Shown here piece after piece: positions 38,701 to 63,643 of a stretch of 64,000 nt of DNA (positions are counted from its first letter, which is position 1; each line of letters begins with the position of its first letter). The DNA is from Ostreococcus lucimarinus (lineage: Eukaryota). The notes below the pieces were generated by a model, which saw only the letters and a list, made by a program, of their open reading frames with translations, was not told where the DNA came from and did no database searches. A program made the translations under genes and the position numbers. The DNA lies in the NCBI GenBank assembly GCA_000092065.1, contig CP000594.1; one strand, written 5' to 3'.

Positions 38701-38763
38701 CGTCGACGCCGACGACGCGCGCGCGACGATGCCGACCGACGACCGACGACCGGCGCCGCGATC

Positions 38764-38874
38764 GACGATCGATCGATCGATCGATCGTCGTTCGCGGGGA
38801 AACTCGATCGACGTCGCGAGCTTCGACGCGCGCGCGCGATCGGCGCCGATCGATCGATCGATCGATCGATCGTC
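38764..38874. repeat. Two (GATC)n palindromic tracts (38764..38788, 38847..38874) in the DNPEP/eIF3b bidirectional promoter
   Basis: cgatcgatcgatcgatcg repeats; similar tracts at 57098..57212 and 63625..63643. Confidence 0.6.
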
Positions 38875-39180
38875 GATGGATGCGAAACCCCAAGAGCATC
38901 GGGAGTGCGCGACGCGCGCGCCATGGACGACGTGCCCGCGAGCTTTCCGCGCGGCGAGGTGCGGACGACGCGACGCGAACGCGACGACGCGACGCGACGG
39001 CGACGCGGCGACGCGCGACGGCGACGCGCGACGACGCGCGACGACGAGGAAACCGATCGAGAGCGGGTTCGGCGGCTCGCGCGCGACGGCGAGGGGGAGG
39101 GCGGCGCGCGCGGGCGACGCGATGCGAGCGACGCGAGCGGAGACTGACGAGACGGACGATTCGCGGCGCAGGATGGATTC

Positions 39181-41277
39181 GTGGATTGGGACAAGGTGGA
39201 CGTCGAGAGCGTGGAGCTGCCCGCGGATGAAATCAAACGCGCCGGGTTGGATCAACCGGTGAAGGTGGAGTTGGAGGAAGCGAAGGAAGATACCGGGTTC
39301 GCGAGCGTGATCGTCGTGGATAATTTGCCGCAGATTCCCGAGGCGAAGTTTGGCAAGCTGTTGAACGTGCTGACGAAGATTTTTACCCAAATTGGTGAAA
39401 TCCGAGAGGGAGGGATGTTGATGCCGCAAGACGAGGCGACGAAGACGTCTCTCGGATACGCGTTTGTGGAGTTTGCGAACGAGCAACAGGCGCAGAGCGC
39501 GGTGGAACAAACGGATGGGTATAAATTGGATAAGACGCACATCTTCAAGGTTTGCAAGTTTGATGACTTTGAAAAGTACCAAAAGGTGCCGGATGAGTAC
39601 GTCGCGCCGCCGCCGAAGCCGTTCGCGCCGCGCGAGAACACTCAAGCGTGGATGATGGATCAGCGTGGGCGCGATCAATTCGTGTGCCGATTCGGCGATG
39701 AGACGCAAATCTTTTGGAACGATCCCCAGACGAAGAAGGGCGAGGATGTGTACACGCGTACGCACTGGACGGAGTCGTATGTGCAGTGGTCGCCCAAGGG
39801 GAGTTTCTTGGCGACGGTGCACAGACAAGGCGTTGCACTGTGGGGTGGTGATTCGTTCGGACGTATCGCTAAGTACGGTCACAATGGCGTTCAATTCATT
39901 GAATTCTCTCCATGCGAGCGATTCCTCGCCACTGGGTCCACGCACGATCCGACCACGGCGGACGGAGTGACATCCGTCCTCGTCAACTTTTTCGACACGC
40001 GCTCGGGCGCCAAGTTGCGTACTTTCATGGGACCTATTAGTGATTTCATAGCCCAAGGCCAACAAGGTTTGAGGTGGCCGGTGTTCAAGTGGTCGGGGCA
40101 GAGTAGCGATGAGAGCGGATGCTTCTTTGCCAAGATGGGCACAGGCATGATTTCCGTGTACGCCGCCCCGGAAATGACGCTGGTGGATAAGAAGTCCATC
40201 AAAGTCGACGGCGTGGTTGATTTCTGCTGGTCCCCGACGGATCCTATCTTGGCCACGTTCCAACCCGAACAAGGTCTCGGTAACCAACCGGCGCGCCTTT
40301 CTTTGATTTCTCTGCCGAGTAAGAAAGAAGTTCGTTCGAAAAACTTGTTATGCACCGGTAGCATCGTCGGCGTCAACATGTACTGGCAAGCGAGCGGTGA
40401 TTACTTTGGGGCTAAGGTTTTACGGACGACCAAGTCAGGGAAGACGACGTATAGTGGTTTCGAGTTGTTCCGCTTGCGCGAACCAAACTGCCCAATGGAA
40501 GTTGTTGAACTCGCCAACAAGGCTGAGAAGATTGTCGCGTTTGCGTGGGAGCCGAAGGGCCATCGCTTTGCCGTCATTCACGGCGACGGTGCGCGTCCGG
40601 ATGTCTCTTTCTACAGCATGAAGGATAAGCAAGGTAACAACAACTGCACGTTGATTGGTACCGTCAAGAATAAGACGGCCAACCATTTGTTCTGGAGTCC
40701 GAATGGGCGCGTCGTCATCTTGGCGGGTCTGAAGACGATGAACGGTCAGTTTGAGTTCTTCGACGTAGAAACCATGGAAACCATGGCGAGCGTCGAGCAC
40801 TTTATGGCAACTGATGTCGAGTGGGATCCCACCGGTCGTTTTGTCACCACGGCGGTGACGAGCGTGCACCAAATGGAGAATGGATACCACATGTGGACGT
40901 TCAACGGCAAGCTGCTGTACAAGTACGGCAAGGATCGTTTCTTCCAGTTTTTGTGGCGTCCTCGCGCAAAGTCCTTGCTCACGGCAGAACAAGAGGCCGA
41001 TATCGAGAAGAACATCAAGAAGTACAGCAAGAGGTTCGAAGAGATCGACGAGAAGATCAGAAACGAGGCGGATTCCAACGTCGCGAGCGAGAAGAGAGCG
41101 ACGGCGGAGAAGTGGAAGAAGTGGGTCGAGTCCAAGAAGGCTGTTCGGGACACCCCGATCTACAAGCAAGCGCTCGACGAGTTGCTTGGCGATCAAGCCA
41201 AGGCAAAGTTGGACTTTGTCGAGACCACCGTCATCGAGGAAGAGATTTTATCCATCGTCGAAGAACCGCTTTCGTAG
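39181..41277 (+). CDS. EIF3B: Translation initiation factor eIF3 subunit B (RRM + WD40 beta-propeller); true start probably in an upstream exon (no in-frame ATG; frame opens at 39148)
   Basis: Strong collinear similarity to eIF3b (SVIVVDNLPQ..., DGYKLDKTHIFKV, WSPKGSFLATVHRQGVALWGG, DVEWDPTGRFV, LLWRPR). The listed start is GTG. Confidence 0.8.
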   Translation: MDWDKVDVESVELPADEIKRAGLDQPVKVELEEAKEDTGFASVIVVDNLPQIPEAKFGKLLNVLTKIFTQIGEIREGGMLMPQDEATKTSLGYAFVEFANEQQAQSAVEQTDGYKLDKTHIFKVCKFDDFEKYQKVPDEYVAPPPKPFAPRENTQAWMMDQRGRDQFVCRFGDETQIFWNDPQTKKGEDVYTRTHWTESYVQWSPKGSFLATVHRQGVALWGGDSFGRIAKYGHNGVQFIEFSPCERFLATGSTHDPTTADGVTSVLVNFFDTRSGAKLRTFMGPISDFIAQGQQGLRWPVFKWSGQSSDESGCFFAKMGTGMISVYAAPEMTLVDKKSIKVDGVVDFCWSPTDPILATFQPEQGLGNQPARLSLISLPSKKEVRSKNLLCTGSIVGVNMYWQASGDYFGAKVLRTTKSGKTTYSGFELFRLREPNCPMEVVELANKAEKIVAFAWEPKGHRFAVIHGDGARPDVSFYSMKDKQGNNNCTLIGTVKNKTANHLFWSPNGRVVILAGLKTMNGQFEFFDVETMETMASVEHFMATDVEWDPTGRFVTTAVTSVHQMENGYHMWTFNGKLLYKYGKDRFFQFLWRPRAKSLLTAEQEADIEKNIKKYSKRFEEIDEKIRNEADSNVASEKRATAEKWKKWVESKKAVRDTPIYKQALDELLGDQAKAKLDFVETTVIEEEILSIVEEPLS

Positions 41278-41384
41278 AGACTACGAGTTGCTTTGTCAAT
41301 ATCGACACCGAATTTATCATCAAAACGCCGCGCACGCGTCGTTCTCAAGACAGGAATGAATTCATCACTACAACACCTTAGATT

Positions 41385-41993
41385 TCATCGCCGCGACGGC
41401 ACGGTGCACCAGCCATCGTCGTCTGGCTCGTTTTTCAAACGTCGCGCCGACGTGTCCAGCGCGTCGTCGCCGCTCGGGTGAACGTTAAAAGCCCCACCCA
41501 ACTGCTCGGCGAGCCCATCGGCGTCGACGGCGTCCATTTCATCATCTCCTTCATCATCACTCGAGCTCGCTCCGGTGTCCATGTCCCCACCACCGTTCAT
41601 CGACCATCGCTTGTCTTCTTCGATTTGTCTGCTTCGCTCGATCGACTCGCGCGGGAGCGGCTTCGATTCAATCTGCGCAACCATATCGTACCTTCCCTCC
41701 GCACACTGCTCGTACATCATCCACAGCGCCTTCGCCACCTCACCCGGCGACCCATCCTCGCACGTGACGTTAAAATCATCCCCTAATATCTCAATCAACA
41801 AATCCTCCAACTCGAGCGCGTCCTTGCTCTTGCGCGACGCGAACCACTCCGCGATCTCCTCTTCCGCCTCCCGCGCCTTCCGTTCGCTCTCCGTCCCCCC
41901 CCACGCGTTCACCACCGCCAGCTGCATCGCCGTCCACCGATCGAACACCGCTTTCACCCCCCTGCGAAACGTCGGCGCGTGCTCGCTCGCCAT
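41385..41993 (-). CDS. TSR2: Pre-rRNA-processing protein TSR2-like
   Basis: FRRGVKAVFDRWTAMQLAVVNAWGG...EKAREAEEEIAEWF... followed by an acidic tail. ATG at 41993 (MASEH). Confidence 0.5.
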   Translation of the reverse strand: MASEHAPTFRRGVKAVFDRWTAMQLAVVNAWGGTESERKAREAEEEIAEWFASRKSKDALELEDLLIEILGDDFNVTCEDGSPGEVAKALWMMYEQCAEGRYDMVAQIESKPLPRESIERSRQIEEDKRWSMNGGGDMDTGASSSDDEGDDEMDAVDADGLAEQLGGAFNVHPSGDDALDTSARRLKNEPDDDGWCTVPSRR

Positions 41994-42554
41994 CTTCGTC
42001 CCGCCCGGCCGTCCCATGAGCATCGCCCTCGCCTCCGCCGCGCTCCTCGGCGTCGCTCGCGCCTCCGCCGCGCCTCCCACCGCGCGTCCCGAGCGCAGTC
42101 GCATCTCATCCTGCCTCGCGCGCGATCGCTCGCGTCGTCAGTCACCGTCGGGTCGTCGTCGTCGTCGCCGCCGCCGCCGCCGTCGCCGGCGCGTCTTCAT
42201 TCGCGTCTTCGTTCGCGTCGCCTCGCGCGCGCGCACCGTCGCCGCGCTCGACGCGCCGCTTCGAAGCTCCATCGCGCGTCGGCGCGTCGCGCGCCGTCGT
42301 CCGCCGTCGGTCGGCGCGCGCGTCGCGCCGTCGCGCCGTCGTTTTCGACGACGATTCCATCGATCGCGCGCGACGCCGGCGAACCTCGAACCGTCGATCG
42401 ACGCCGCGCGAACGAACCTCGCGTCCGAGGTTCGAGCGCGCGCGTTTTGGATAAAATCATCCGACGCCGCGCGAAGAACGACGCGCGCTCGAGAGACGGC
42501 GACGCGCGACGCGCGAGCGAGGCGACCGAGCGGGAAACGACGCGAGCGGGAGCG

Positions 42555-43700
42555 ATGCGCGCGACGGCGGGCGCGCTGGGCGGCGCGCGCGCGCGGTGCG
42601 AGCGCGCGATCGGCGCGCGATCGGTGACGAAGACGAGAAGCGCGCGACGGGGGGGGCGCGCGACTCGCGCGGCGAGCGCGGCGGAGCTGGCGAGCGAGGA
42701 GAATAAGGACGTCAAGGTGCTCGTCGTGGGGGCGACGGGGTACATCGGGAAGTACGTGACGCGGGAGTTGTGCGCGCGCGGGTACGACGTCACGGCGTTT
42801 ACGCGGGAAAAGAGCGGCATCGGCGGAAAGACGAACGCGACGGACGCGAAGGCGTTGTTCCCGGACGCGAAGGTGAAGTTCGGCGACGTTGGAAGCAAGG
42901 AGTCGATCGAGACGAAGGCGTTCGATGAGGGCGCGTACGACGTGGTGGTGTCGTGCCTGGCGAGCCGCACGGGCGGCGTGAAGGACTCGTGGGATATCGA
43001 TTATCGCGCGACGAAGAACGTGTTGGACGTGGCGCGCGAGCGCGGGAGCAAGCACTTCGTTTTGTTGAGCGCGATTTGCGTGCAAAAGCCGACGCTGACG
43101 TTCCAAAAGGCGAAGCTTAAGTTTGAGGCTGAGTTGCAAGCGGCGGGGGATATTTCGTACACCATTGTGCGCCCGACGGCGTTTTTCAAGTCTCTCGCGG
43201 GGCAAGTCGAAGTGGTGCAAAAGGGCGGCCCATACGTCATGTTCGGCGATGGACAATTGGCTTCGTGTAAGCCGATCTCCGAGAGCGATTTGGCCAAGTT
43301 TATGGCGGATTCTATTCGCGAGCCGGAGATGTTGAACAAGGTGCTCCCCATCGGCGGCCCGGGCGAGGCGATGTCGGCGCTTCAGCAAGGCACTATGCTT
43401 TTTGAACTCCTCGAAATGGAACCAAAGTTCATCAAAGTGCCGATTGAAGTGATGGACGTCGCTATCAAGGTTCTCGATGTCTTCGCTGGCTTCTTTAGCA
43501 ACATGAAGGATGCGGCCGAGTTCGGCAAGATTGGTCGATACTACGCCGCCGAATCGATGTTAGTGATGAACGATGATGGTAAGTACGACGCCGCCGCGAC
43601 GCCGAGCTATGGCTCGGACACACTTAAGGAATTCTTCGATAAGGTGAGCAAGGAAGGTCTCGCGGGCCAAGAGCTCGGCGACCAGGCCGTTTTCAAGTAA
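42555..43700 (+). CDS. DVR: 3,8-divinyl (proto)chlorophyllide a 8-vinyl reductase (DVR), with chloroplast transit peptide
   Basis: Near-collinear match to plant DVR (VLVVGATGYIGKYV, VVVSCLASRTGGVKDSWDIDY, FVLLSAICVQKP, IVRPTAFFKSL, YVMFGDG, CKPISE, VLPIGGPG, EFGKIGRYYAAESML). Confidence 0.9.
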   Translation: MRATAGALGGARARCERAIGARSVTKTRSARRGGRATRAASAAELASEENKDVKVLVVGATGYIGKYVTRELCARGYDVTAFTREKSGIGGKTNATDAKALFPDAKVKFGDVGSKESIETKAFDEGAYDVVVSCLASRTGGVKDSWDIDYRATKNVLDVARERGSKHFVLLSAICVQKPTLTFQKAKLKFEAELQAAGDISYTIVRPTAFFKSLAGQVEVVQKGGPYVMFGDGQLASCKPISESDLAKFMADSIREPEMLNKVLPIGGPGEAMSALQQGTMLFELLEMEPKFIKVPIEVMDVAIKVLDVFAGFFSNMKDAAEFGKIGRYYAAESMLVMNDDGKYDAAATPSYGSDTLKEFFDKVSKEGLAGQELGDQAVFK

Positions 43701-43785
43701 ACGCTGTTTACTCGCGAAGAATTTCATTTATTTTAATGCAACGTGCGCTTTCTTTCTATTTTCCATCGTATCATCTAAGGCTACC

Positions 43786-44625
43786 CTACTTTTTCGCCGC
43801 CAGCGGTCCTAGAATGTTCAACGCTCGCTCTAACGCCTCCACCGCGGTGTTCACGTCGTCGAAACCCAACGCGCTTACCGCATTCTTTGCGTGTCGCTGC
43901 GCGTCGGCGATGCTTCCAACGTCGATCTTCGGCGGTGTGACCCCAGGCGGCGCTCGACCGCCTCGAACCACCGGCGTTTTGCTCGTAGCCTTCGATGGGG
44001 CGCCCGTGTTTACACCAGCTGGTGGTCCACTGGCCACGTGTGGCGGTGGAGGTGGCGGCGGCGGCGGTTGATGCCTCGGCGCCGGCGGCAATTCCACCTC
44101 TGGCTCCGCCGACGACGCCTCCGCCTCGACGCCTATCTCGCTTCGCTCTTCGCCCTCATCATCTACTGGCGGTGCGGTCGCATTTCGACCCTCTCTACAC
44201 GCTTTCGTTATCTCCGCCGCACGCCACTCCGCGTACCGCTGCTTGTTCTCTATATCTGCGTCCAATTTCCCGTCGGCGTCAAACTGTCGCAAAACGTTGA
44301 AGAAGATTGATGACGCGTAAAACATTTTTGCCGTGTTCATCCCTCGCGAGCCACCCCGATCGGCCCGATCGGCCTTTACGAATATTTGCAAAGCGAACGA
44401 CTCGCACTCCAGCTCATCGTGTTCCTCGTTCAGTTCGTCTTTCATCTTCGCCTTGGCGCGCTCGAGCCGTTCCATGGCGTCCGACAGCGCCTCGTTAACC
44501 TCCGCCGAGCGATAATCGAGTTTCAGCCCCTCGCGCACGGCATGCATGCGGCAGTAATACGCAATTTTCGGTTTCGCCGCGTCCAACTCCTGCGCACGCT
44601 TCAGAATCGGCGCGATGAGCTTCAA
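43786..44625 (-). CDS. VTA1: VTA1/LIP5-like ESCRT-III/Vps4 cofactor
   Basis: N-terminus KRAQELDAAKPKIAYYCRMHAVREGLKL...ESFALQIFVKADRADR; Pro-rich linker; C-terminal VSL-like ADAQRHAKNAVSALGFDDVNTAVEALERALNIL. Confidence 0.65.
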   Translation of the reverse strand: MKLIAPILKRAQELDAAKPKIAYYCRMHAVREGLKLDYRSAEVNEALSDAMERLERAKAKMKDELNEEHDELECESFALQIFVKADRADRGGSRGMNTAKMFYASSIFFNVLRQFDADGKLDADIENKQRYAEWRAAEITKACREGRNATAPPVDDEGEERSEIGVEAEASSAEPEVELPPAPRHQPPPPPPPPPHVASGPPAGVNTGAPSKATSKTPVVRGGRAPPGVTPPKIDVGSIADAQRHAKNAVSALGFDDVNTAVEALERALNILGPLAAKK

Positions 44626-44899
44626 CTGTTTGACGAAGCGAATCTCTCGACGTGGTCAGTCGCGAACTTTGACACGACGATTCCGCGCGTTGCGGGACGT
44701 AAACGCGCGATGACGCGTTCGAGATCATGGTGTCATGTGCGTTATAGGTCGGAACGCGGTCACGCACCTGGTCAGCCATGGATACGCGTCGAGAACGCGA
44801 GTCGCGTTGTGAAGGTGCCTCTCGAGTCGAACGCGTGGAGCGCGGAACGGATCATTCGAGCCGAAGCTTCGTGCGCGCTAGTACTACTGTAGGACTAAA

Positions 44900-46234: not shown

Positions 46235-46295
46235 CTCGACGCCGGCGAGCGGGACGGAGAGTGCGGCGCGACGAAACAGTTACACTATCGGTACT

Positions 46296-47453: not shown

Positions 47454-47560
47454 GCCGCGAGGGCGCGCGCGAGGCGACGCGCGAAGGTGTGCGGCGCCGC
47501 GCGCAGGCTCGGGACAGCGGGACGACGCGCTTCGGTGAGAAGAAGAATTTACACTATTTA

Positions 47561-48679: not shown

Positions 48680-48954
48680 GACGCGACGTACGCTCGCGCA
48701 GGTACGTGCGCGCGGTCACGCGAACGCCTTGACGCCGACGGACGCCCAGACGCCGACGGACGCGCGCGTCCAAGACTGCCGATCGACCACTGGACCAAGG
48801 TTATCCAAAAGCTGTACACGCGAAGGCTTTGACGCGGGACGCGAGAGGCGAGCGGGACGAGACCGCGAGGCGAGACCGCGAAAACGCAGAGATATCTGAG
48901 ATGCACTAGGAATGACTAGGCTAAAATGACTATCGCGATGAATGCGTGCCGAGT

Positions 48955-52671: not shown

Positions 52672-52776
52672 TAGAAGACCGCGCCAGAGCGCGCGCGTAG
52701 ACTTGTGAAATAGAAAATTTGTTGCATTTCTTCCGCTACGTCACTTCGCCCCTCGCCGCCGCTCCGCGTCACGGTC

Positions 52777-53331
52777 ATGCACGCGAGCGCTCGAAGAACC
52801 GCCCTCCGCGCCCTCGCGCGCGGTGTATCCTCCAGCGCCTCCACCAACGCCTGCGCGACGCGCACGAACGCGACGGCGTTCCTCGCGAGTCGCGCGTCGA
52901 CGTCCCCATCCCTCCCCGCGCGCGTTCGCGCCGCCTCGCGCGCGCGACGCGCGTTCGCGTCCGACACGCACGATGATTTCAAACCCAAGGTTGCCGATGC
53001 CTCGAACGAGGACGTCGAACGCGCGATCGAAAGCGACGTGCAAACGAACGCGGTGCTGATTTACATGAAGGGGTCGCCGAGCGCGCCGCAGTGCGGGTTC
53101 TCGAACATGGCGTGCCGCATCCTCGATCATCACGGCGTGGAGTACGCGTCGAGAAACGTGCTCGCGAGCGAGGAATTGAGAAATGGTATCAAGGCGTACT
53201 CGGCGTGGCCGACGATCCCGCAATTGTACGTCAAGGGAGAATTCGTCGGGGGCTCGGACATCATGATGTCGATGCACCAGAGCGGCGAGCTCGCGGAGTT
53301 GTTCAAGGACGTCGCCAAGCGCGCGGATTGA
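52777..53331 (+). CDS. GRX5: Monothiol glutaredoxin (Grx5-type, CGFS), mitochondrial presequence
   Basis: VLIYMKGSPSAPQCGFSNMACRILDHHGVEY...WPTIPQLYVKGEFVGGSDIM. Confidence 0.85.
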   Translation: MHASARRTALRALARGVSSSASTNACATRTNATAFLASRASTSPSLPARVRAASRARRAFASDTHDDFKPKVADASNEDVERAIESDVQTNAVLIYMKGSPSAPQCGFSNMACRILDHHGVEYASRNVLASEELRNGIKAYSAWPTIPQLYVKGEFVGGSDIMMSMHQSGELAELFKDVAKRAD

Positions 53332-54069
53332 TGCACGCATCGCACGAGTAGGTTTGTCTATTTTACTTAGTCTAATTCCCGAGGCGTGCGATCGCATCGC
53401 GTTCGCGTTCCCATTCGGCTCGTTCCGGGCGCGACGCGTCTCGCTCCTCTCGCCGCGTCACGACGCCCAGTCTCGCGCCATCTGTTCGCTCTTGCGATCA
53501 CCGTGCGCGTCCCCGCTCGTTCTCGCGGCCGCCGCCTTGGACGCGCGCACTTTACTCGCCATCGCTTCGCTCTGTCGTCGTCGCGCGTCGTCGTCCTCGC
53601 CGTCAGTCGCGTCGTCACGCCGTCTCGAGCCAACCGTCGCGCACCTTGATCCCGCGCATCTCGCTTTGCTTATTCCGCGCTTCCGCGGCTTTCAGCGCCA
53701 TCGCTCGGCGCTCGTCGACCGTGGCGAGATCGTCGTACGGCGCCGAGGCGCAGCATCCCATCGGACGCGATCCCAGTCGGCGGCGTCGACGTCGCGATGT
53801 GACGGGGGCGCCGCCGCGGCGACGGGAGTGAGTTGAAGCAATGAATCGATTATTATTACATAACCTCGTAGTCGTATATGGTGGACGCGAGCCCCTATCG
53901 CGCGTTTAAAAACACGCGAGTTTATGGTATAGTTCGTTTTCACACCGCAGAAAGCATAGACTCGTCGAAGCGATATTTTCCATCGCTCGACGACGCTGCG
54001 TTTTTGCGAGCGCGCTCCTCCGTGGAACGCGCTCGCAGAAGACATTTTTCATATCATGATTTACATCAT

Positions 54070-54091
54070 GATTTCTCTGTACAGAGAAATC
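54070..54091. terminator. Perfect 22-bp palindrome GATTTCTCTGTACAGAGAAATC in the shared 3' region of convergent Grx5/Pumilio genes
   Basis: Self-complementary sequence, AT-richer context. Confidence 0.25.
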
Positions 54092-54154
54092 ATCACCCTC
54101 TCACCCATTTCACGATTTTGACTCTTGGGAACAAGTAAAAATGGATCAACTGTT

Positions 54155-56257
54155 TTACTTCTTGTTCTCCAGGAGTAATCGCAAAATCCGTTTACCGAAC
54201 GGACTATTTTTGATCAATGGCAAGTGTGGTCTGATACGCTCGACAAGTTCGGTGTGAAGAACACCTTTTGTGACAGTGAGCGTTGACTGCACGACGTAGT
54301 TACCGTACGGATCCATGAGAAGACGGTCCAACAGGGGCGACTGCATGATTTCACGCACGACCGTGTTGCGATTCTTCTCGAGAGACGCGTCGGCGAGTTT
54401 GAGGCACTTCTCGACAACGTTGGAGCTGAACTTCTGCATGGAGAGTTCGGCATAGTTGCCGAGGAGCTGCGTCATAACTTCTCCGTTGGCCCAAGACAAT
54501 CCGAGGTCCAAAATGTATTGAACGACGTAGTTTCCAAAAGGATCTTGAGAAAGCACGAGCGCTTGAGAGGCGATTTCGAGCACCAACGGACGACGTTGTT
54601 CATCAATGGCGTGGTCGATGCAACGCTGAAGAACGCAACAACCGTGTCGGTGAGTCGCAATCTCAACACAGTGCACCTTGGCCGCGTCATAGATGAATTG
54701 GTTGTCTTCAGACGACAATCTTTGAAGGCACCGCTGAATTACGTGGTTACCATTCAAGTCCTTGATCAAAGTAACGACCCCAGGTCGTAATGCGTTCGTC
54801 GCCAGAGAAACCTCTTCGGGAGAGTTGAGCATCTCGATCAACTTTTGAACCGCGCGAGTACCGTGCGTGTTCAAAGCGATAGTGACGAGCTCAGGCAACC
54901 CATCAAGTGAATCATCCTTGACGACAGAAACCGCGCGTAGAACTCCAGAACGTTGTTCGTCGCTGCAGCACTCGATCAACTTTTGCACCAAATAGTTGCC
55001 AAAGGGATCCATCATTAACTCGACGGCTTCGGCGATGATTTCATCGTAGCACAAGTCGACGGCTTTGGCACCTTCTTCATCAAACTTCCGTTGTAAGAAT
55101 CGGCAACCGTGTTGATCGCGCGCGAGCACAGAAATCTGTCCGACGCAGTTGTCGACGGAGACGAAACGACTGTCCATCTCCGCGATTTCAGCCTCGGACG
55201 GAGGAGAATCAGATCGCGCAACCGAACCGGAGAGCGACTGTGAGCCACCCCCATTTCGATCGCCTCGATCACCCGCACGATTTCTTCCCATAGTTCTACC
55301 AACGCGAGAGCGATCGTCTCGACCGCTCATGCGCGAGCCGTAGCCACCGTTATCGCCCCCGGCCATCCCGCCGTCGAGACCAGAGAATTGCTGAAGCTGT
55401 TGCGCAGTCAAGTTCTGATGCATAAGTCCAGGAACTTGTTGCTGCATGCGCATCAAGTTCTGCAACTGCTGTTGCTGAGCGTAGAAAGCGGCAGCGTACG
55501 CAGCTTGGTAGACTTCAGCCATGGATTGCGGTTGACCATTCGCGCCGTAACCCGCACCGCCGAGCCCGCCGCCGAGGTTCGACGCGAGAAGCTGCGCCAT
55601 CTCCGGCGTTTGGACAGGCATACCGCCCGACATGCCGCCTAAACCGACACCAGCACCCATCCCAAAAGCATCCATGCCCGCCATGGACGGCGTGCCTTGG
55701 AGCTGCTGCATTTGCTGCAGCTGCTGCAACTGGAGCTGGAGCATGGCGGCGTTATCCATACCACCGCCGGCGCCCACGGCGCCGTAAGCGCCCATGACCG
55801 GTGCCGGAGAGGCACTTTGCGAATTCGCTTCAGTGCTAAATCGCGATGAGTTACCCACAAAGCTCGCTTGCTGTCCGTGAGGAGCGGCGTGCGAGCCGTG
55901 CGGCGGAAGCGGCGCGGTGGATGGCCGCAGCGGCACATCCGTCCCTAACCCGAAGCTGGAGAACGCGCTCACGACATCCGTCGTGCCTTGTCCCAAACTA
56001 CTACCCGCCATATTCCCCATACCATTCAGATCGCTCGGCAACCCAAACGCGCTCTCGTTGAACGCTCCGTTTGACATCGAGTTCGACCGCCCGTGGTGCC
56101 CCGACGGAATCGCCCCGTCGTCTCTCGACGCCCCAAACAACCCACCACCCTTCCCGAACCCCGCGGCGTGTCCGAAGTGTCCAGAGTTGTGCGCACTATC
56201 GGCATCACCCGCTGCCGTCTTCCCGTACGACAAATCTACCGCCGACGCGCTCCGCAC
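54155..56257 (-). CDS. Pumilio-family (PUF) RNA-binding protein
   Basis: Eight PUF repeats (FGNYLVQKLIE, HGCRFLQRKFDE, HGTRAVQKLIE, NGNHVIQRCLQ, HGCCVLQRCID, FGNYVVQYILD); Q/G/M-rich N-terminus. Confidence 0.85.
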   Translation of the reverse strand: MRSASAVDLSYGKTAAGDADSAHNSGHFGHAAGFGKGGGLFGASRDDGAIPSGHHGRSNSMSNGAFNESAFGLPSDLNGMGNMAGSSLGQGTTDVVSAFSSFGLGTDVPLRPSTAPLPPHGSHAAPHGQQASFVGNSSRFSTEANSQSASPAPVMGAYGAVGAGGGMDNAAMLQLQLQQLQQMQQLQGTPSMAGMDAFGMGAGVGLGGMSGGMPVQTPEMAQLLASNLGGGLGGAGYGANGQPQSMAEVYQAAYAAAFYAQQQQLQNLMRMQQQVPGLMHQNLTAQQLQQFSGLDGGMAGGDNGGYGSRMSGRDDRSRVGRTMGRNRAGDRGDRNGGGSQSLSGSVARSDSPPSEAEIAEMDSRFVSVDNCVGQISVLARDQHGCRFLQRKFDEEGAKAVDLCYDEIIAEAVELMMDPFGNYLVQKLIECCSDEQRSGVLRAVSVVKDDSLDGLPELVTIALNTHGTRAVQKLIEMLNSPEEVSLATNALRPGVVTLIKDLNGNHVIQRCLQRLSSEDNQFIYDAAKVHCVEIATHRHGCCVLQRCIDHAIDEQRRPLVLEIASQALVLSQDPFGNYVVQYILDLGLSWANGEVMTQLLGNYAELSMQKFSSNVVEKCLKLADASLEKNRNTVVREIMQSPLLDRLLMDPYGNYVVQSTLTVTKGVLHTELVERIRPHLPLIKNSPFGKRILRLLLENKK

Positions 56258-57097
56258 GAGGTCATCCGTCGCCCCCTCGCCCGCGGCGCGCGTCTCGTCC
56301 CGCAGTAACCTCGAAAACGTGCTCTCGTACTCCCTGCGTCCCGCGCGAGCGCGCGAAATCCGTCAGTCACCGAAGCGCGCGTGCGTTTCATCTCTCCTTC
56401 CCCGCATCGTCTCGTCTCGCGCGCTCCCGCTCGCGCGGACGTCGCGCGACGCGTCCAGAGTCACGCCGCGCGGATGTCTCGAGTCGCGCCGCGCGCGCGC
56501 CGCGACGAAACCGCGCGCGTTCGAGCGCCGCGACGCGCCCACGCCGCGTCCGCGTCCGCGCGCGACGCGCGACGTAAATTCTTCTTCCGGATTCTCGCCG
56601 CGCGAATCCCGCGCGCGAGCCCTCGACGACGACGACGCGTCCCATCGCGTCGCATCGCATCGCATCGCATCGCGTCGCGAAACCCCCGCACCTCCACGAC
56701 GGTGACGTCCCCGCGATGTCGTGCGCGCCCTCGCTCGCGCTCGCGCTCGCGCCGCCATCGCTCGATGGTTTAAACATCTGCGTCCTCGCGGCGCGTCCGC
56801 GCGTCTATCGCCCGCCGCGCGGACGAGCGCGTCGTCGATCGACGCGCGGACGCGCGCGGATGTCGAGCGCGACGCGCGCGGCGTCGGCGCGTTCGAATCG
56901 ATCGTCGCTCGAGCGCGCGATGCGAATCCACCGAGCCCGCGACGCGGGCGTCGAGCGACGGCGTTCGAATCGATTCGCGCGCCCGCGTCGCCGTGCGTCG
57001 CGAAGCGCGCGCCGTGCGACCTCGACGACGGCGCGTCGAACGCGACGCCCGAGCGTGCGTGTGCGGGCGCGGCGGCGGCGGCGAGGCGCCGCGCGAA

Positions 57098-57212
57098 CGA
57101 TCGAACGATCGATCGATCGATCGATCGATCGAACGATTCGCGAACCCGATCGATCGATCGATCGCGCGCGCGAACGATCGATCGACGTCGATCGATCGAT
57201 CGACCTCTCGCA
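57098..57212. repeat. (GATC)n / CGATCGAACGATCG palindromic tracts in the Pumilio/TAPT1 bidirectional promoter
   Basis: Seen directly; same motif class as 38764..38874. Confidence 0.6.
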
Positions 57213-57292
57213 CACCCGGGTGTCTGCGCGCGCGCGTCGAACCGCGAAATCGCGTCGAATCGCGCGTCGGCAGACGGCGCCGGTCGTCGTCG

Positions 57293-58975
57293 ATGGAGAA
57301 GACGCCCGCGCGGGCGACGTCGGAGGACGAAGGGATCGGGATCGTCACCCCGGGCGCGGTGAACGATGGGATCGGGGCGCGCAGACGCGCGAAGAGTGGG
57401 TCGGAGACGACGACGACGAACGCCGCGAACGAGAACGACGAGGACGATGACGATGATTCGGTGACGATGGTGGCGCGAGCGAACGCGCGGGCGCGCGAAC
57501 GCGCGAGGATGGAGGCGCTGAGAGATTGGACGGTGATGCGGGAAGACGAAGGGCGATCGTCGCCGCCGCCGGTGGCGATCGAAGGGCTGACGACGATTCG
57601 GAAGTATTGCGCGCTCGAGTTGGGCTTGCGCGTGGGCGAACGCGAGGACGATCCGGACATGTCGCACGCGCGCGAGCGCGTGTTCGATTTATTGTGGTAC
57701 ATACCGTTGGAATTGGAAAAGTTTTGCCTGTACGGGGGGTTGCTGTGCGCGGATGCGATTTTGGGGTTGTTTACGTCGCTGCCGGTGCGCGTAATGTCGC
57801 AGACGGTGCGTTTGGCGTGGTCGGTGTCGGGGCTGAAATCGAGAGACAAGACGTCGTCGAAGCGTCGTGCGTGGGGGATACACCCGTATGCGCGCGAACA
57901 TTTGAACGATGTCTTGTGGCTGTTCATGCTGTGCGTCGCGGTGACGTACACGCACATGCTTGACGTGAGCGTGATTTATCACTACATTCGAGGCCAAGAA
58001 GTGATCAAACTTTACATGGCGTGTCACGTCCTGGAGACGTTCGATAAGTTGTTGTGTTCGTTCAATAGCAACGTGCTCGATGCGCTACAAAACAGCGTGC
58101 ACGGATGCGTCAGCGCGGCGACGAACGGGTCAAAAGTTGATCAAGTGAAGTCTGGTGTCAGGCTCGCCGTGGATGTGATTTTGTCCACGAGCGCGACGGT
58201 GGCGCACACGTTCATCCTTCTCACGCATGCCGTGACACTTTCGGTGGCGATCAACAGTCACACGAACGCTATGTTGCTCGTGCTCATCTCGAATAATTTC
58301 GCGGAGATGAAAGGTCACGTGTTCAAGAAGCAGGATCCAGAGAAGTTGTTTGGCGTCAGTCGACTCGACGTCATCGAGCGAGTGCATCTCTGCGTGTGTC
58401 TGATGTTCGTCACCGCACAAAGAATCATGGCTGCTGGAAATCTTGAAATGGCGCTCACGCGTAAATTTTTGAACGACATAGCCTTGGTGATGGGTTCGGA
58501 GATTTTCGTCGACGTTGTGAAGCATTCATTCATGGCGAAATTCAACGGCTTGCGCCCAGGCGTTTATCGACGATTCTATCGACAAATCTGTCGAGATCAC
58601 GTGCACTTGACGCAGTCATACAAGATACATCAAGTCGTTGGATTCGTCCCACTCGCTCCGGCGGCGGTTATCGTTCGCGTCGTTCCAGGTCTATATCGAA
58701 CACTCAAGCAAAACGCGATGTCCTCCGACATTGTCACGCGAGGAGCTTTCGATCGTTTATTGGCACATTTTAGCGGCCGTGTCATCGGTCTCGGGGTCAT
58801 GTTCATCGCGATTTGTTTTAAGCTCGCGTTCGGTATCGCTATTTACACCTGGGGTGCGCGCTCGCTCGAACGCACATCGAAAGTAACGCCGAGCGCCGAG
58901 CGATGGGGCGCTAAGACGCCGGGCAAGGTGACTGGAAGCATGCCGAGATCGCCGCCTAGGATCAAGGTCAATTAG
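57293..58975 (+). CDS. TAPT1/DUF747-family multi-pass membrane protein
   Basis: ATG at 57293 (MEKTPARAT). Multiple TM segments; conserved HVLETFDKLLCSFNSNVLDAL-type block. Confidence 0.55.
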   Translation: MEKTPARATSEDEGIGIVTPGAVNDGIGARRRAKSGSETTTTNAANENDEDDDDDSVTMVARANARARERARMEALRDWTVMREDEGRSSPPPVAIEGLTTIRKYCALELGLRVGEREDDPDMSHARERVFDLLWYIPLELEKFCLYGGLLCADAILGLFTSLPVRVMSQTVRLAWSVSGLKSRDKTSSKRRAWGIHPYAREHLNDVLWLFMLCVAVTYTHMLDVSVIYHYIRGQEVIKLYMACHVLETFDKLLCSFNSNVLDALQNSVHGCVSAATNGSKVDQVKSGVRLAVDVILSTSATVAHTFILLTHAVTLSVAINSHTNAMLLVLISNNFAEMKGHVFKKQDPEKLFGVSRLDVIERVHLCVCLMFVTAQRIMAAGNLEMALTRKFLNDIALVMGSEIFVDVVKHSFMAKFNGLRPGVYRRFYRQICRDHVHLTQSYKIHQVVGFVPLAPAAVIVRVVPGLYRTLKQNAMSSDIVTRGAFDRLLAHFSGRVIGLGVMFIAICFKLAFGIAIYTWGARSLERTSKVTPSAERWGAKTPGKVTGSMPRSPPRIKVN

Positions 58976-59049
58976 TGTTGTAGTACATAGAATTGAAATG
59001 CATTTGTCGAGCGACGTCCACGGCTTCGCGCCGTCCGGACGCCCCGATT

Positions 59050-61047
59050 TTAGAGCGTCGTTTCGTCGGCTTCGCCAGATTTTTCTGGCTCTGGTGTGCG
59101 CCACTCGTCGGCGGACGCGCCGAATTCCTCCGCTAAGCCGCGCCAAAGAGAGAGTGAACGTTCGGCGTTGGCGACTTGCACACGGGAGTAGTTGAGCAGC
59201 ATGGCGTGAAATTGTGCGACGCGCTCTTTTTCTAAACGAGCGAATTCCTCGCGATGACGATCTTGGATGATTTTGTAATCGACTTTTGCCTGCTCTCCAG
59301 TCGCGCGCGTGGCGTCGAGTTCGAGCTTCAAATCTTCAACCTTTTTCATCTTGGTGAAGTCTGGCGTGAGCTTGGCGATTCTGGCTTCCAATCTATCCGC
59401 CTCAGCGAGCATGGTTTGAAGCGTCAAGAGAGATTCATTGCGGTCGCTGATGGACCTACGAACGGAGGGCATGATTTTCAAGTAGTCGTGAAGCGGCTCG
59501 AGCGATTGCGCCGTCTGCGCCGTCGCCGCGCGAGAGACGCGGCTCACCTTGATTGACGTGTTCCCAGCTTTTCTCATTTCATTCGCGGCAGTCATGCACT
59601 CGAGACCATTCTCGCTGTATTTGCCTAACCGCGTACCCTCCTCTTCTTGAATCTTTGCAAATTTCAAGCACTCCAAACCAAACTCTCCCACGGCTTCGCC
59701 AAACTTTTGCTGCAACGTCAGCAACTTCGTCGCCTTGGATGACATCCCGGATAACTCATTTTCCATGCGAACGACTCTATCCTTTTCAACCAAGAACGCG
59801 GCGTCCTCTTCCATCACTTTCGGTTTGGGAGTGTCCAGCCCCAACACGCCGCCGACGGCGCTCACCGCCGTCGACTGCACCACAGTCTGTCTCAGTTCTT
59901 TGAAAAATCTACCGAAGTCACGAGGCTGCCCAGGAGACGCCACCGCGATCGGAGGGCGTTGTGGCGTTTCCGGACTACTCGGTAGATCGCTCGGGATCGT
60001 CGTGATGACCCTTCCCGCGGTCATGTTGAACCAATCGAGACTCGACGCCAAATCTTGGTGAGTGAGGAAGATTCGAAGCGGATCCCCGAGACGAAGCTTG
60101 GAGTGCGATGCGATGCGATTGAGGTAGTGCTGCAGCTGTATCGCGCGTTCTGCGATGAAGTTGTCTCCCGTCGAGCTCACAACCGTCTTCTCCGGTCGAG
60201 GCGGGATGAAATAGCCTCGGTGAAGCGCCGAGAGTCTGGCGTCGAGGGCGACAAAGTCGCGAAATCGTCTCCAAACCACAACCTCTTTGTGAATGTACGA
60301 CGGAATCGTGGTGCGCGTGGTAATCTTGTAGTGCGTCACGCGCTTACCGACGAGCGCCGCGCTCGTATCGGCCTCAATCTTGGGATCGCTCACCCAAATC
60401 TGAAGCGTCTCCTCGTCTCCCGCTCCGTCGTCGCCGTCGAGGTAAACCGTCGTCGTCCCTCCCACCGCGTTCGCCCCGACATCGCGCGCTGGTTGAATCT
60501 CAGGCTGCGCGTACATCACGCTGTCCGCGTACGACGGCGGCGGTGCGAGTAAATCCCCGTACGACATCCCCGCGTTCGCGTGATAGCTCCCGTTTTCGAG
60601 CGCCTCCCCGCCCCCCCCCCCCGCCCGCGTCGGCGTTCGCGGCGACGCCGGTTCGACGTCCCGTTCCACCCCGACCCCGATCCCGATCCCGATCCCGCGT
60701 TCGTCGTCGAGCGACGCGTCCCGCGTCCTCGCGCTCGCGTCGTCCGCGCCCGCGTTCGTCTCCGCGCCCACCCCCAGCGGTTCGTCGCGCCGCGCCTCGA
60801 GCTCCGCCGCGTCCACGTCGAACGGATTCGTCGACCGCGCGTCGAACATCGCGCGCGTCGCGTCGTCCGTCGATTCGCGCGTCTCGATCGCGTCGCGCGT
60901 CGTCGTCGTCGTCGTCGTCGTCGCCTCCATCGCGCGTCCCAATCCTCCCAACGACCGATCGAGCGCCGGTCCCGCGAGCACGCCGAGCGCGGACGCGCCC
61001 GGGTCGAGATCGATCGATTCGTCGTCGCTGTCGTCGCGCGGCGTCAT
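59050..61047 (-). CDS. Sorting nexin with PX and BAR domains (SNX1/Vps5-like)
   Basis: PX region (RRFRDFVALDARL...YFIPPRPEK...RAIQLQHYLNRI) followed by a long coiled BAR-like C-terminal half. Confidence 0.7.
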   Translation of the reverse strand: MTPRDDSDDESIDLDPGASALGVLAGPALDRSLGGLGRAMEATTTTTTTTRDAIETRESTDDATRAMFDARSTNPFDVDAAELEARRDEPLGVGAETNAGADDASARTRDASLDDERGIGIGIGVGVERDVEPASPRTPTRAGGGGGEALENGSYHANAGMSYGDLLAPPPSYADSVMYAQPEIQPARDVGANAVGGTTTVYLDGDDGAGDEETLQIWVSDPKIEADTSAALVGKRVTHYKITTRTTIPSYIHKEVVVWRRFRDFVALDARLSALHRGYFIPPRPEKTVVSSTGDNFIAERAIQLQHYLNRIASHSKLRLGDPLRIFLTHQDLASSLDWFNMTAGRVITTIPSDLPSSPETPQRPPIAVASPGQPRDFGRFFKELRQTVVQSTAVSAVGGVLGLDTPKPKVMEEDAAFLVEKDRVVRMENELSGMSSKATKLLTLQQKFGEAVGEFGLECLKFAKIQEEEGTRLGKYSENGLECMTAANEMRKAGNTSIKVSRVSRAATAQTAQSLEPLHDYLKIMPSVRRSISDRNESLLTLQTMLAEADRLEARIAKLTPDFTKMKKVEDLKLELDATRATGEQAKVDYKIIQDRHREEFARLEKERVAQFHAMLLNYSRVQVANAERSLSLWRGLAEEFGASADEWRTPEPEKSGEADETTL

Positions 61048-61234
61048 CGCGCGGCGTCGTGTGCGCGCGACGCGACGCGACGCGCGATCGGAGGCGATGG
61101 CACGCGTGTCGTATGGGTAAACAGTGAGGCGTATGTTTTAGTTCGACCCGTCACCCTCGGCGCGACGACCCGCCACACCGCGACGGCGACGGCGCCGAGG
61201 GTGACCGGGACGAGGGAAACCGCGGTGACGACCC

Positions 61235-62548
61235 ATGACGACGCCGCGCGCGCGCGTCGCGGCGCACGCGGCGCGCGAGCGCGACGACGTCGAGGACGGC
61301 GGCGCGCTCGGAGGCGCGACGACGACGGCGCGCGCGCGGGGACACGGGAACAGGAGCCCGCGATCGATGGCGACGCACGGATTCGGACAGCCGACGCGAC
61401 GGACGCCGTGGGGGGCGAGGCTGCGCGCGACGCTCGGGATGGACGGAAGGAAAACGGGAGAGCGGACGCGGGACGGACGACGCGGGCGGGGACGGGGACG
61501 AGGGGACGCGAGGGAAGACGAGGAAGACGGCGATGGGAGCAAGGGAAGGCGCGACGGGCGACGGGAGGCGGAGAGAACGTCGAGATTGTGGTGGGTGTGC
61601 GCGGCGGTGCTGGTGTGGACGTTCGGGCCGTTCGCGTACAAGTGCGCGCAGGGGTTCAACAAGGTGTACGGGCGAAGATGGTTCGATCCGGTCGAGCGAC
61701 CGGTGCCGTGCGAACCGACGAGCGCGGCGGCGGCGAAGCTGGTGGATAACTCACCGTTACCGGGGCTCTTACCGGCGGACATGACGAATCTCCCGAGTTT
61801 ACTGCCGAAAAAGTTCAAGATTGGAATGATTTCGCTCTGCGACGACGGCGTCGAAGCCATCTGCGCGCAGTCGATGGCGAACAAGCAGGCGTACGCCGAT
61901 TATCACGGATACGATTTGATAGTGGATGAAGAAATTATCGATAGAAACCGGCCGACGAGCTGGAGTAAGCTACTGGCGATGCGCAAGTATTTGCCCGATT
62001 ACGACTTTATGCTCTACGTCGACGTCGACACGATCATCATGAATCCGGAGAAGAAGTTGGAAGACATCGTGGATTACAATTACGATCAGATGCTAGCGGC
62101 GGATAAAAACGGTTTAAATTGTGGGGTTTGGATGGTGCGCAACACGCCGTGGATGCTGTGGTTCATCGACGAGATGTGGGCGCAAGATCAACTCGTCGCG
62201 CCGAAGACGTGGAACATGCTCTTTAAATACGAGCAACGCGCTTTTCATTATCTCTATCAGTCAAAGATTTGGCGCAGCAAGGTAAAAGGTGATGCATACC
62301 CCAAAGCTAACACCGTTCGCGCGAGGACAAAGGTTTTGAACGCGTGCGTGTTCAATTCTCAGCCTTCGTTTTACGTCAAAGGCGATTTGCTCGTCCACCT
62401 CGCCGGTCTGAAGGGCACGGTAAAGTGCATGTGGTTTAGATATTACTACAAACAGTCTCTGAACACGATTCGGGCGGTGGGTGCGGTGTCATCAGACGCC
62501 GATCTCCCTCCGCCGTCGATTTGGACGTGTTTAACGAGGCAAACGTGA
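61235..62548 (+). CDS. GT34-family glycosyltransferase (MNN10/GMA12-type), type-II membrane topology
   Basis: Signal anchor LWWVCAAVLVWTFGPFAY. KIGMISLCDDG, YADYHGYDL, YDFMLYVDVDTIIMNP, NCGVWMVRNTPWM, FKYEQRAFHYLY motifs. Confidence 0.7.
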   Translation: MTTPRARVAAHAARERDDVEDGGALGGATTTARARGHGNRSPRSMATHGFGQPTRRTPWGARLRATLGMDGRKTGERTRDGRRGRGRGRGDAREDEEDGDGSKGRRDGRREAERTSRLWWVCAAVLVWTFGPFAYKCAQGFNKVYGRRWFDPVERPVPCEPTSAAAAKLVDNSPLPGLLPADMTNLPSLLPKKFKIGMISLCDDGVEAICAQSMANKQAYADYHGYDLIVDEEIIDRNRPTSWSKLLAMRKYLPDYDFMLYVDVDTIIMNPEKKLEDIVDYNYDQMLAADKNGLNCGVWMVRNTPWMLWFIDEMWAQDQLVAPKTWNMLFKYEQRAFHYLYQSKIWRSKVKGDAYPKANTVRARTKVLNACVFNSQPSFYVKGDLLVHLAGLKGTVKCMWFRYYYKQSLNTIRAVGAVSSDADLPPPSIWTCLTRQT

Positions 62549-62640
62549 AATAGCGTGCGCTAGCGTAGTGTATTGAACAGCGCAAACTCCGAACTCCCGT
62601 CCTCACACTCGAGCGCGCGCGTCGAGCGCGCACGCGTCGC

Positions 62641-62737
62641 GATGGCGGATTCGGTGACGCAGTTACAGAACCAAATCAACACTCTGTGTCAGTTGATGTT
62701 CAACTACGCCGGGACGCTGCAGCGCGACGCCAAGCCG
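62641..62737 (+). CDS. MED21: Mediator subunit MED21, exon 1
   Basis: MADSVTQLQNQINTLCQLMFNYAGTLQRDAKP versus human [32 protein letters not shown]. GT donor at 62738. Confidence 0.65.
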
Positions 62738-62840
62738 GTGCGACGACCGACGCGCTCGACCGCTCGAAAAATGCGCGACGCCGCGCGCGAACTCTCGCCC
62801 GTGCGACACGACTGACGCCGCGCGCGGCGCCGATGAACAG

Positions 62841-63161
62841 GCCACGATCGGACCGAACGGTGAACTCAACGATGCGCTCACCGAGGGTGGGGTGACGCGA
62901 GCGGAGATAGACGAAATGGCAGCCACGATCGCCGAGGCGAACCGAGTGATTATGGAAATCGCGCGCGCGCTGCCGGAGATCGATACGGATGAGAAAGCAG
63001 CGCGTAAACGCATCGCCGCGCTTCACGCGGAGCACGACAAGGTGAGTAAAGAATTAGAAACCGTCATCGCGCAGGCGAAGGCGGAGTTAGACGTCATCAA
63101 CGCCGCTTTCAAAGCCGCGGCGAGCGGCGTATTGGCGCTCGACGACGAAGCGACCGATTAG
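62841..63161 (+). CDS. MED21: Mediator subunit MED21, exon 2 (103-nt GT..AG intron at 62738..62840)
   Basis: Joins in frame after acceptor CAG at 62838-62840. ...EIDEMAATIAEANRVIMEIARALPEI...AALHAEHDKVSKELE... aligns with the MED21 C-terminal half. Confidence 0.65.
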   Translation, partial: ATIGPNGELNDALTEGGVTRAEIDEMAATIAEANRVIMEIARALPEIDTDEKAARKRIAALHAEHDKVSKELETVIAQAKAELDVINAAFKAAASGVLALDDEATD

Positions 63162-63248
63162 TCGATAGAAAATAGATCCGCGTTGAAGTGTACATCTTCG
63201 TTCGTATAGCAGTGACTAGTGTAACGTTACAATCTAAATTTCCCTCCC

Positions 63249-63536
63249 TCACGGCGCCGAAGACACGAGATCGCGCAGGCACTTCTCCACCTCCTTCGCG
63301 TCCAGTCCCTCGAGCTTCACGCACTTCTCCACGCCGTAGTCGTACCGCGCGTACAACTTCCCCTCGATCCCGCTCGCCTCGCGAATCAGCACCGGCGTCG
63401 TCGGCGACGCCGCCTTCAAGTTTTTATAGCTCGACATCAAGAAATTCCTCACGCCCTCGCTCCCTTTGCTCGTCTGACACAGGTGAAAGCGAAGCTCTTG
63501 CAAGGTTTTCAGTCCCGCGAACGCGGCTTTGCTCAT
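63249..63536 (-). CDS. NDUFA2: NADH dehydrogenase (ubiquinone) 1 alpha subcomplex subunit 2 (NDUFA2/B8)-like
   Basis: LQELRFHLCQTSKGSEGVRNFLMSSYKNLKAASPTTPVLIREASGIEGKLYARYDYGVEKCVKLEGL. Thioredoxin-like fold family. Confidence 0.75.
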   Translation of the reverse strand: MSKAAFAGLKTLQELRFHLCQTSKGSEGVRNFLMSSYKNLKAASPTTPVLIREASGIEGKLYARYDYGVEKCVKLEGLDAKEVEKCLRDLVSSAP

Positions 63537-63624
63537 CGCGACGCCGCGACTTCCGTCCCGCGCGCGCGCGTCCCGCGTCCCTGAAAGAGTGAGCCCTTCG
63601 GCGTGTCCCGCTCGGTCGCCTCCG

Positions 63625-63643
63625 CGATCGATCGATCGATCGA
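63625..63643. repeat. (GATC)n tract in the NDUFA2/RPS24 bidirectional promoter
   Basis: gcgatcgatcgatcgatcgacg. Confidence 0.55.

Follow-up and report, generated by a model that had tools for sequence, protein, structure and literature searches.

GATC tandem repeats beside gene starts in a Micromonas-type alga: probable lineage-specific microsatellites

Why should runs of the palindromic tetranucleotide GATC stand between head-to-head gene pairs? We examined such runs in a 64,000-nt stretch of contig CP000594.1 (assembly GCA_000092065.1) of Ostreococcus lucimarinus, which we call the window and on whose scale coordinates are given. An initial annotation of this DNA had taken the runs for marks of divergent promoters, and had suggested either a bidirectional-promoter or nucleosome-positioning element or the target of a GATC-specific modification system. 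We find it likelier that they are near-neutral, lineage-specific tetranucleotide microsatellites (unit CGAT/GATC), recently expanded in one Micromonas-type (Mamiellales) species.

Anatomy, variation and turnover of the tracts

The motif (GATC)3 has 16 overlapping matches in the window against 0.04 expected, and none of 100 dinucleotide-preserving shuffles reached 16. These matches resolve into six perfect tracts of three to six copies in three divergent spacers: two tracts between DNPEP and eIF3b, an array between Pumilio and TAPT1, and one tract between NDUFA2 and RPS24 (Table 1), just where the initial annotation had seen them. The tracts are thus head-to-tail perfect repeats well above chance, as expected of microsatellites, and (ATCG)n accounts for six of the ten tetranucleotide simple sequence repeats (SSRs) of the window, and these six are the longest. 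The array at 57098-57212 is made of perfect runs of six (57107-57130), four (57148-57163), two (57176-57183) and three copies (57190-57201), linked by degenerate units of CGAACGATCG type. Every run of at least three copies in the window is non-coding and lies in a divergent spacer, so the reported absence from coding DNA holds for these; it does not hold for two-copy GATCGATC words, of which the window has seven more, several within open reading frames (ORFs; at 19732, 27461 and 61008). The weaker copies reported around 42355-42372, between TSR2 and DVR, came down to one ATCGATCG and isolated CGATCG words. There is no GATC tract in the first 18 kb of the window (51% GC), and an Rfam search of positions 18000-64000 at gathering thresholds gave no match to a known structured RNA family.

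Copy number varied within the species, as it does in microsatellites. We took 20 further same-species assemblies at the DNPEP locus, from TARA, JGI and ENA projects, and compared 21 haplotypes. Both tracts of the DNPEP/eIF3b spacer were carried by all same-species assemblies, in the identical place between the same flanks. The eIF3b-side tract had six copies in 19 of the 21 haplotypes, eight in L150 and five in L154. The DNPEP-side tract had five copies in 20 of the 21 and had decayed by three substitutions in the other (L152), and a partial repeat beside it was polymorphic in the population alignment (GATC/GTTC/GCGC). The rest of this spacer carried single-nucleotide polymorphisms and indels at intermediate frequency. 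At the TAPT1 and NDUFA2/RPS24 loci, a JGI contig of the same species (L165) had tracts identical to those of the window.

The same comparison disposes of an assembly or library artefact, in which the tracts would be Hi-C ligation junctions or adapter concatemers. GATCGATC is indeed the DpnII/MboI Hi-C fill-in junction; however, the tracts have three to eight copies rather than two, and the same tracts with the same flanks recur in 21 assemblies, made by unrelated projects with different assemblers. We rejected this explanation, and give it a negligible chance.

Between species, the tracts were not conserved. We compared relatives with the same gene order, namely L001, L005 and L006 (DNPEP protein identity 78-86%) and L166 and L167 (TAPT1 identity 78-79%). 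No run of at least three copies was found in 85 kb of their syntenic DNA, as against three tract-bearing spacers in 46 kb of the window; the relatives' DNPEP/eIF3b, Pumilio/TAPT1 and NDUFA2/RPS24 spacers all lacked one and had single or double GATC at most. Upstream of its TAPT1 orthologue (~7400-7700), L167 has no GATC tracts but carries (GACC)8, (GCTC)5 and (GA)8, and at the corresponding place in L166 the array is absent and several CGATCGAGCGAC words are present. This upstream site is repeat-prone across species, with a different motif in L167 than in the window. The ATCG class made up six of 46 SSRs in the window and one of 64 in the relatives (Fisher p=0.02); the (ACG)n and (CG)n classes were common to both. 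The decayed L152 allele, the interrupted array and the absence at orthologous loci are together the birth-and-death turnover expected of microsatellites. They leave little room for the bidirectional-promoter element of the initial annotation, because the tracts are missing from the orthologous spacers and only three of the nine divergent spacers of the window carry one.

One element of the DNPEP/eIF3b spacer is kept across species, and it is not a GATC run. It is the GGAAACTC word between the two tracts (38797-38806), which occurs in the form GGAAAC(T/G)(C/A) in all four related species (L001, ~9801-9812; L005, ~9863-9875; L006, ~9940-9953). If the spacer has a real promoter element common to these species, we think this word likelier to be it than the GATC runs.

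Spacer classes and the composition of 5' DNA

A scan of JGI metagenome contigs for (GATC)5 returned at least 120 contigs. We called a contig Micromonas-like if its tetranucleotide profile correlated with that of the window at r>=0.85 and its CpG observed/expected ratio was 1.35-1.9; among the 120 matches listed, 33 were of this kind, at distinct loci. The relatives score equally high on this profile (r=0.90-0.98), which cannot part the species of the window from its congeners, so the bias is towards Micromonas-type genomes and not provably towards one species. Non-algal (GATC)5 matches among those listed were sporadic. In many of the Micromonas-like contigs (L027-L146 set), a GATC tract is at most a few hundred bases away from a contig end; GATC repeats may tend to break short-read assemblies.

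Gene models came from a simple ORF and codon-score finder trained on the Pfam-supported genes of the locus. Over the window and the 33 Micromonas-like contigs among the listed matches, 12 tract events fell in divergent, 11 in tandem and one in convergent spacers, classes that hold 39%, 42% and 19% of the non-coding bases, respectively. This count of runs of at least three copies against gene starts, of the kind that the initial annotation had proposed on a genome-wide scale, gave no enrichment in divergent spacers beyond their share of length, as a bidirectional-promoter element would have. Another 15 events, also from the listed matches, lay at contig ends, 12 beside the 5' end of a gene and three beside a 3' end. 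Pfam confirmed same-orientation genes on both sides in two of the tandem cases (L029 and L074), and in L093 a tract lies 34 bp after a stop codon. Two tracts called as coding, in L091 and L075, proved on inspection to be ORF over-extensions. Within the window, tracts occur in three of nine divergent spacers and in none of 21 others (Fisher p ~0.02 by count), but p is ~0.15 by length, because divergent spacers hold about half of the window's non-coding bases.

Tracts were nonetheless close to gene starts. In the window, 51-171 bp separate them from the start codons on either side; in the Micromonas-like contigs among the listed matches they are mostly 30-350 bp upstream, with a range of ~30-680 bp to predicted ATGs. 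The genes beside them in these contigs are eukaryotic, of green-algal type and unrelated in function (HMG box, SET, PWWP, CCCH/KH, Rab, prefoldin, GPI2, ferredoxin, PRK, Dof). The marking of promoters thus stands insofar as the tracts are non-coding and promoter-proximal, and falls as regards head-to-head specificity. In sum, the tracts have every microsatellite feature that we examined, and lack the divergent specificity and orthologous conservation of a bidirectional-promoter element.

The 5' spacers in which the tracts lie are rich in SSRs of several kinds. We counted perfect SSRs of at least 12 bp, leaving out of the densities the spacers by which the loci had been selected. Divergent spacers (GC 0.65, 192 CpG per kb) have 3.4 SSRs per kb and tandem spacers (GC 0.60, 164 CpG per kb) have 1.8, as against 1.0 in convergent spacers (GC 0.50, 111 CpG per kb) and 0.64 in coding DNA (GC 0.60, 138 CpG per kb). 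CpG is present in each of the commonest classes, namely (ACG)n, (CG)n, (ATCG)n, (ACCG)n and (ACGCG)n, and an ATG is found on neither strand of any of them. A separate observation is the palindrome TGTACA in the 5' and tandem spacers of the 33 Micromonas-like loci (among the listed matches) and of the window. With 20 occurrences where dinucleotide composition predicts 2.6 (7.8x), it shows the strongest non-repeat hexamer excess there, and may serve in polyadenylation or as a promoter signal.

The richness of these spacers in short GATC words has a possible functional explanation, in which (C)GATC(G) cores form a homotypic cluster of sites for a GATC-recognising transcription factor, such as a GATA-type zinc finger, that drives one or both genes. 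Certain GATA factors of plants and fungi recognise GATC cores. With long tracts masked, the DNA upstream of start codons has ~1.4x the GATC density of the DNA downstream. CGATCG occurs 3.0-3.6 times per kb in 5' spacers, 1.1 times in coding DNA and 0.8 times in convergent spacers, and the several CGATCGAGCGAC words upstream of the L166 TAPT1 orthologue would agree with such a cluster. Dinucleotide composition, however, explains most of the CGATCG excess, which is 1.4x the dinucleotide expectation. Moreover, the tracts are not conserved at orthologous promoters, their position relative to the ATG is variable, the genes beside them have no common function, and a 4-bp register makes for overlapping sites that cannot all be occupied together. 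We consider an array of factor-binding sites unlikely.

How microsatellites of this unit could come to stand at gene starts can be put as follows. Two-copy seeds would arise by chance in 5' DNA, and would be common there because the upstream DNA of compact genomes is CpG-island-like and rich in TCGA and CGATCG words. Replication slippage would then extend and shrink the runs, probably helped by their self-complementarity, which allows a hairpin on either strand, and point mutations would break them up, the array at 57098-57212 being a likely example. Runs would survive only where no reading-frame, terminator or upstream-ATG constraint acts. They would persist only in spacers because units of 4 bp put coding DNA out of frame; they would be scarce in 3' (convergent) spacers because those are short and lower in GC; and they would be tolerated in leaders because GATC runs have no ATG on either strand, and so would add no upstream starts to either gene of a divergent pair. 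The apparent marking of head-to-head promoters would arise mainly because a compact genome, dense in genes, has its CpG-rich non-coding DNA at such places.

The tracts resemble the promoter-proximal microsatellites of eukaryotes, including the GC-rich SSRs of green algae and Micromonas (PMC6387519), in their perfect 4-bp tandem units, copy-number polymorphism, interruption by point mutations, fast turnover between species and concentration in 5' non-coding DNA beside (ACG)n, (CG)n and other CpG SSRs. They differ from microsatellites in general in that the unit is a self-complementary, restriction-type palindrome, a rare SSR class, and in that GATC is over-represented in one Micromonas-type lineage. 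The searchable literature on GATC, CGATCG and microsatellite motifs in Micromonas and Mamiellales promoters yielded no report of (GATC)n; what it contained were Hi-C methods passages and SSR surveys of a general kind.

Several observations weigh against a microsatellite origin. The excess of (ATCG)n among tetranucleotide SSRs, found in this species only, is not obviously predicted by composition alone, and a microsatellite origin leaves unexplained why this lineage has this palindromic unit rather than others. The lineage bias of 33 Micromonas-like contigs among the 120 matches listed is striking, although it is not normalised to the share of such DNA. Convergent spacers are depleted, with one of 24 events against 19% of the length (binomial p ~0.04, among the listed matches). 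In the DNPEP/eIF3b spacer the two tracts are placed near-symmetrically, one 66 bp from the DNPEP ATG and the other 51 bp from that of eIF3b. The tract cores there have singleton variants only, whereas the flanks have several polymorphisms of intermediate frequency; this contrast is compatible with mild constraint, and is not significant (no common variant in 44 bp of core against ~7 in 177 bp of flank). Lastly, the gene finder is crude and misses short first exons, so that gene starts are approximate.

Adenine methylation and other readings of the GATC unit

A second functional explanation rests on N6-methyladenine (6mA). AMT1-type methylation of symmetric ApT has been reported in Micromonas pusilla and Ostreococcus tauri; it is strongest where the context is S-AT-S, as in GATC, is found in active genes at their 5' ends and is anticorrelated with nucleosomes (PMC12695648). 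A telomere-to-telomere (T2T) preprint on O. tauri places a 6mA peak at the start codon. The tracts would then be dense symmetric ApT arrays, with one site per 4 bp, methylated by the AMT1 complex at active gene 5' ends. The effect would be very high local 6mA in AT-poor promoter DNA, keeping the region open or setting the first nucleosomes. GATC is a word of the S-AT-S type with a symmetric ApT, the tracts have the distance from start codons given above, and ApT is otherwise scarce in these spacers (~40 per kb), all of which fits. The likeness to known AMT1 systems (Chlamydomonas, ciliates, early fungi, M. pusilla and O. tauri; PMC12695648) extends to symmetric ApT in S-AT-S and to gene 5' ends, and stops there. 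Known 6mA is independent of repeats and lies over ordinary ApT in linkers downstream of the transcription start site (TSS), its upstream signal being ascribed to head-to-head neighbours (PMC12695648), whereas the tracts are probably upstream of or at the TSS. They are also missing from most promoters (in the window, from six of nine divergent spacers) and from the orthologous promoters of relatives in which the 6mA system is presumably present as well. CATG, the other palindromic word of this type, was not enriched upstream of start codons. The CATG result, the lack of conservation and the minority of promoters concerned argue against a required role in 6mA, and we hold both the methylation of the tracts as a platform and its effect on the promoter to be doubtful, if worth keeping in mind.

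A related and more novel proposal starts from the repeat unit. (GATC)n is the densest possible S-AT-S array, and no other repeat of this kind lacks ATG on both strands. The tracts could then be genetically encoded "6mA islands", whose copy number would tune adenine methylation and the first nucleosome at a subset of promoters, as a mutable, lineage-specific rheostat; we think this slightly more doubtful still. It is as eukaryotic AMT1 methylation of ApT, and not as a Dam-like system, that the GATC-modification idea of the initial annotation would survive. Bacterial Dam/SeqA clusters, at oriC and regulated promoters, resemble the tracts in that GATC sites crowd together locally within regulatory, non-coding sequence, but their sites are about a helical turn apart, unlike the contiguous 4-bp register found here. 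We rejected a Dam/SeqA-type cluster because of these contiguous sites and because the flanking genes are eukaryotic nuclear genes, one with an intron; such a genome offers no Dam/SeqA context.

The tracts could also act through structure, as a cruciform or hairpin formed under transcription-driven negative supercoiling that excludes nucleosomes or insulates transcription units from each other. They do sit in short spacers between transcription units, and each folds as a perfect hairpin, of -9.3 to -14.2 kcal/mol as single-stranded DNA; the array, taken as 121 nt, folds at -45 kcal/mol. The hairpin, however, follows trivially from the unit. Dinucleotide-shuffled sequences are almost as stable when folded (z 0 to -1.9), and such z-scores are uninformative for this repeat because the shuffles stay self-complementary. 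Arms of 8-12 bp are, moreover, short for stable cruciform extrusion, and most spacers have no tract, nor are the tracts conserved across species. A parallel exists in the animal (AGAT)n or GATA-repeat boundary elements, which are likewise tetranucleotide repeats of a few tens of bp between transcription units; PMC6387519 cites enhancer-blocking activity for (AGAT)n. Those elements have another motif, while GATC tracts show no evident preferred length (three to eight copies). We consider a structural role unlikely, slightly more so than the factor-binding array.

Finally, the tracts might be a target or by-product of GATC restriction-modification, for example by a system of algal viruses. Such viruses can have the enzymes: the chlorovirus PBCV-1 has M.CviAI/R.CviAI for GATC, and algal giant viruses can encode pairs of GATC methyltransferase and endonuclease (PMC12700378). 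A nuclease that cuts GATC would, however, select against GATC clusters in the host, and GATC is not depleted here, since coding DNA has 4.6 per kb where base composition predicts ~3.6, which counts against this explanation. The 64-kb window encodes no such system either, and the viral contigs that do carry (GATC)5 belong for the most part to an unrelated family of tailed phages (16 contigs in all of 2.9 million in IMG/VR, most from that one family). We think restriction-modification very improbable. As to the phages themselves, a marine tailed-phage family (L012, L013, L015-L021, L024 and L025; GC 0.43-0.48) keeps exactly five GATC copies at 83-85% identity, at the 3' end of an ORF like that of the terminase small subunit (terS) and flanked by GGTGGGTGGGTGGGT repeats. 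This (GATC)5 may be a packaging or regulatory site unrelated to the alga.

Genes of the locus and meaning of the tracts

Table 1. Positions of GATC tracts, their spacers and flanking genes (window scale, except for the phage contig L013)
Feature	Position	Strand	Remarks
(GATC)5 perfect palindromic tract	38767-38786		66 bp from DNPEP start codon (38700-38698, minus)
(GATC)6 perfect tract	38848-38871		51 bp upstream of eIF3b ATG (38923)
DNPEP(-)/eIF3b(+) divergent spacer, 222 bp	38701-38922		two tracts 61 bp apart, flanking the GGAAACTC word
Single ATCGATCG in TSR2/DVR spacer	42351-42358		isolated CGATCG words in addition; no tract
Pumilio(-)/TAPT1(+) spacer, ~1 kb, GC-rich	56258-57292		array at TAPT1 end
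Interrupted, decaying GATC array, 115 bp	57098-57212		ends 91 bp upstream of TAPT1 ATG (57293)
NDUFA2(-)/RPS24(+) divergent spacer, 276 bp	63537-63812		one tract
(GATC)4 tract	63626-63641		89 bp from NDUFA2 ATG (63536-63534, minus); 171 bp from RPS24 ATG (63813, plus)
Aspartyl aminopeptidase (DNPEP) gene	37162-38700	-	Pfam Peptidase_M18; 100% identical to P0001
eIF3b gene	38923-41277	+	exon 1 38923-38958, intron 38959-39171, exon 2 39172-41277; Pfam RRM_1 and eIF2A
Pumilio ORF	54155-56257	-	Pfam PUF
TAPT1 gene	57293-58975	+	Pfam DUF747/TAPT1
Phage (GATC)5 in L013	10584-10603		terS-like ORF 10553-11152, minus

The gene names given in the initial annotation agree with Pfam for all eight genes; besides those in Table 1, NDUFA2 matched CI-B8, RPS24 Ribosomal_S24e, TSR2 TSR2/WGG and DVR an NmrA-type reductase. 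A product of TARA_SAMEA6000741_METAG-scaffold_230 matches the DNPEP protein at 100% identity, and the scaffold itself is 99.7% identical to the window over 21.5 kb. For TAPT1, the closest named homologue is that of Bathycoccus prasinos (55%), and other relatives reach 73-86%.

The eIF3b intron, placed from the reading frame and splice dinucleotides, would be 213 nt long (GT..AG) after a first exon of 36 nt, and nearly all of it is low-complexity repeat of (CGACG)/(GCGAC) type. The (GATC)6 tract is followed, ahead of the eIF3b start, by an upstream ATG (38876-38878), and the leader (38872-38922) has 1-bp and 6-bp indel polymorphisms in the population alignment, so the frame of this ATG is not conserved. 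Because it lies between tract and start, the upstream ATG suggests that the eIF3b TSS is downstream of the tract and the 5' UTR (untranslated region) very short.

CpG observed/expected is 1.65 over the window. Together with the gene content, the compactness, the eIF3b intron and the presence of a segment of lower GC, this ratio agrees with a Micromonas-type member of the Mamiellales. GC rises from ~0.51 in 1-18000 to ~0.61 in 18001-64000, a step that resembles the low-GC "outlier" chromosome regions of Mamiellales. The low-GC part has hardly any CpG-type SSRs, and its genes score badly under the codon model trained on GC-rich genes. Three spacers are long for a compact genome (0.8-1.3 kb; 56258-57292, 32345-33665 and 53332-54154) and have no Rfam match; they may hide first exons, small genes or long UTRs.

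What the tracts mean is in the first place a descriptive point of genome texture: a palindromic GATC microsatellite fills part of the CpG-island-like 5' spacers of this globally sampled alga, and its congeners lack it. The tracts can be used as species-diagnostic, length-polymorphic markers in metagenome population studies. They also call for caution: where genes are so dense that almost all of the non-coding DNA is promoter, repeats found "at promoters" need not be functional. The testable link to 6mA is the part most worth following up; if the tracts were preferred AMT1 substrates, they would provide a natural allele series for probing the role of 6mA at gene starts.

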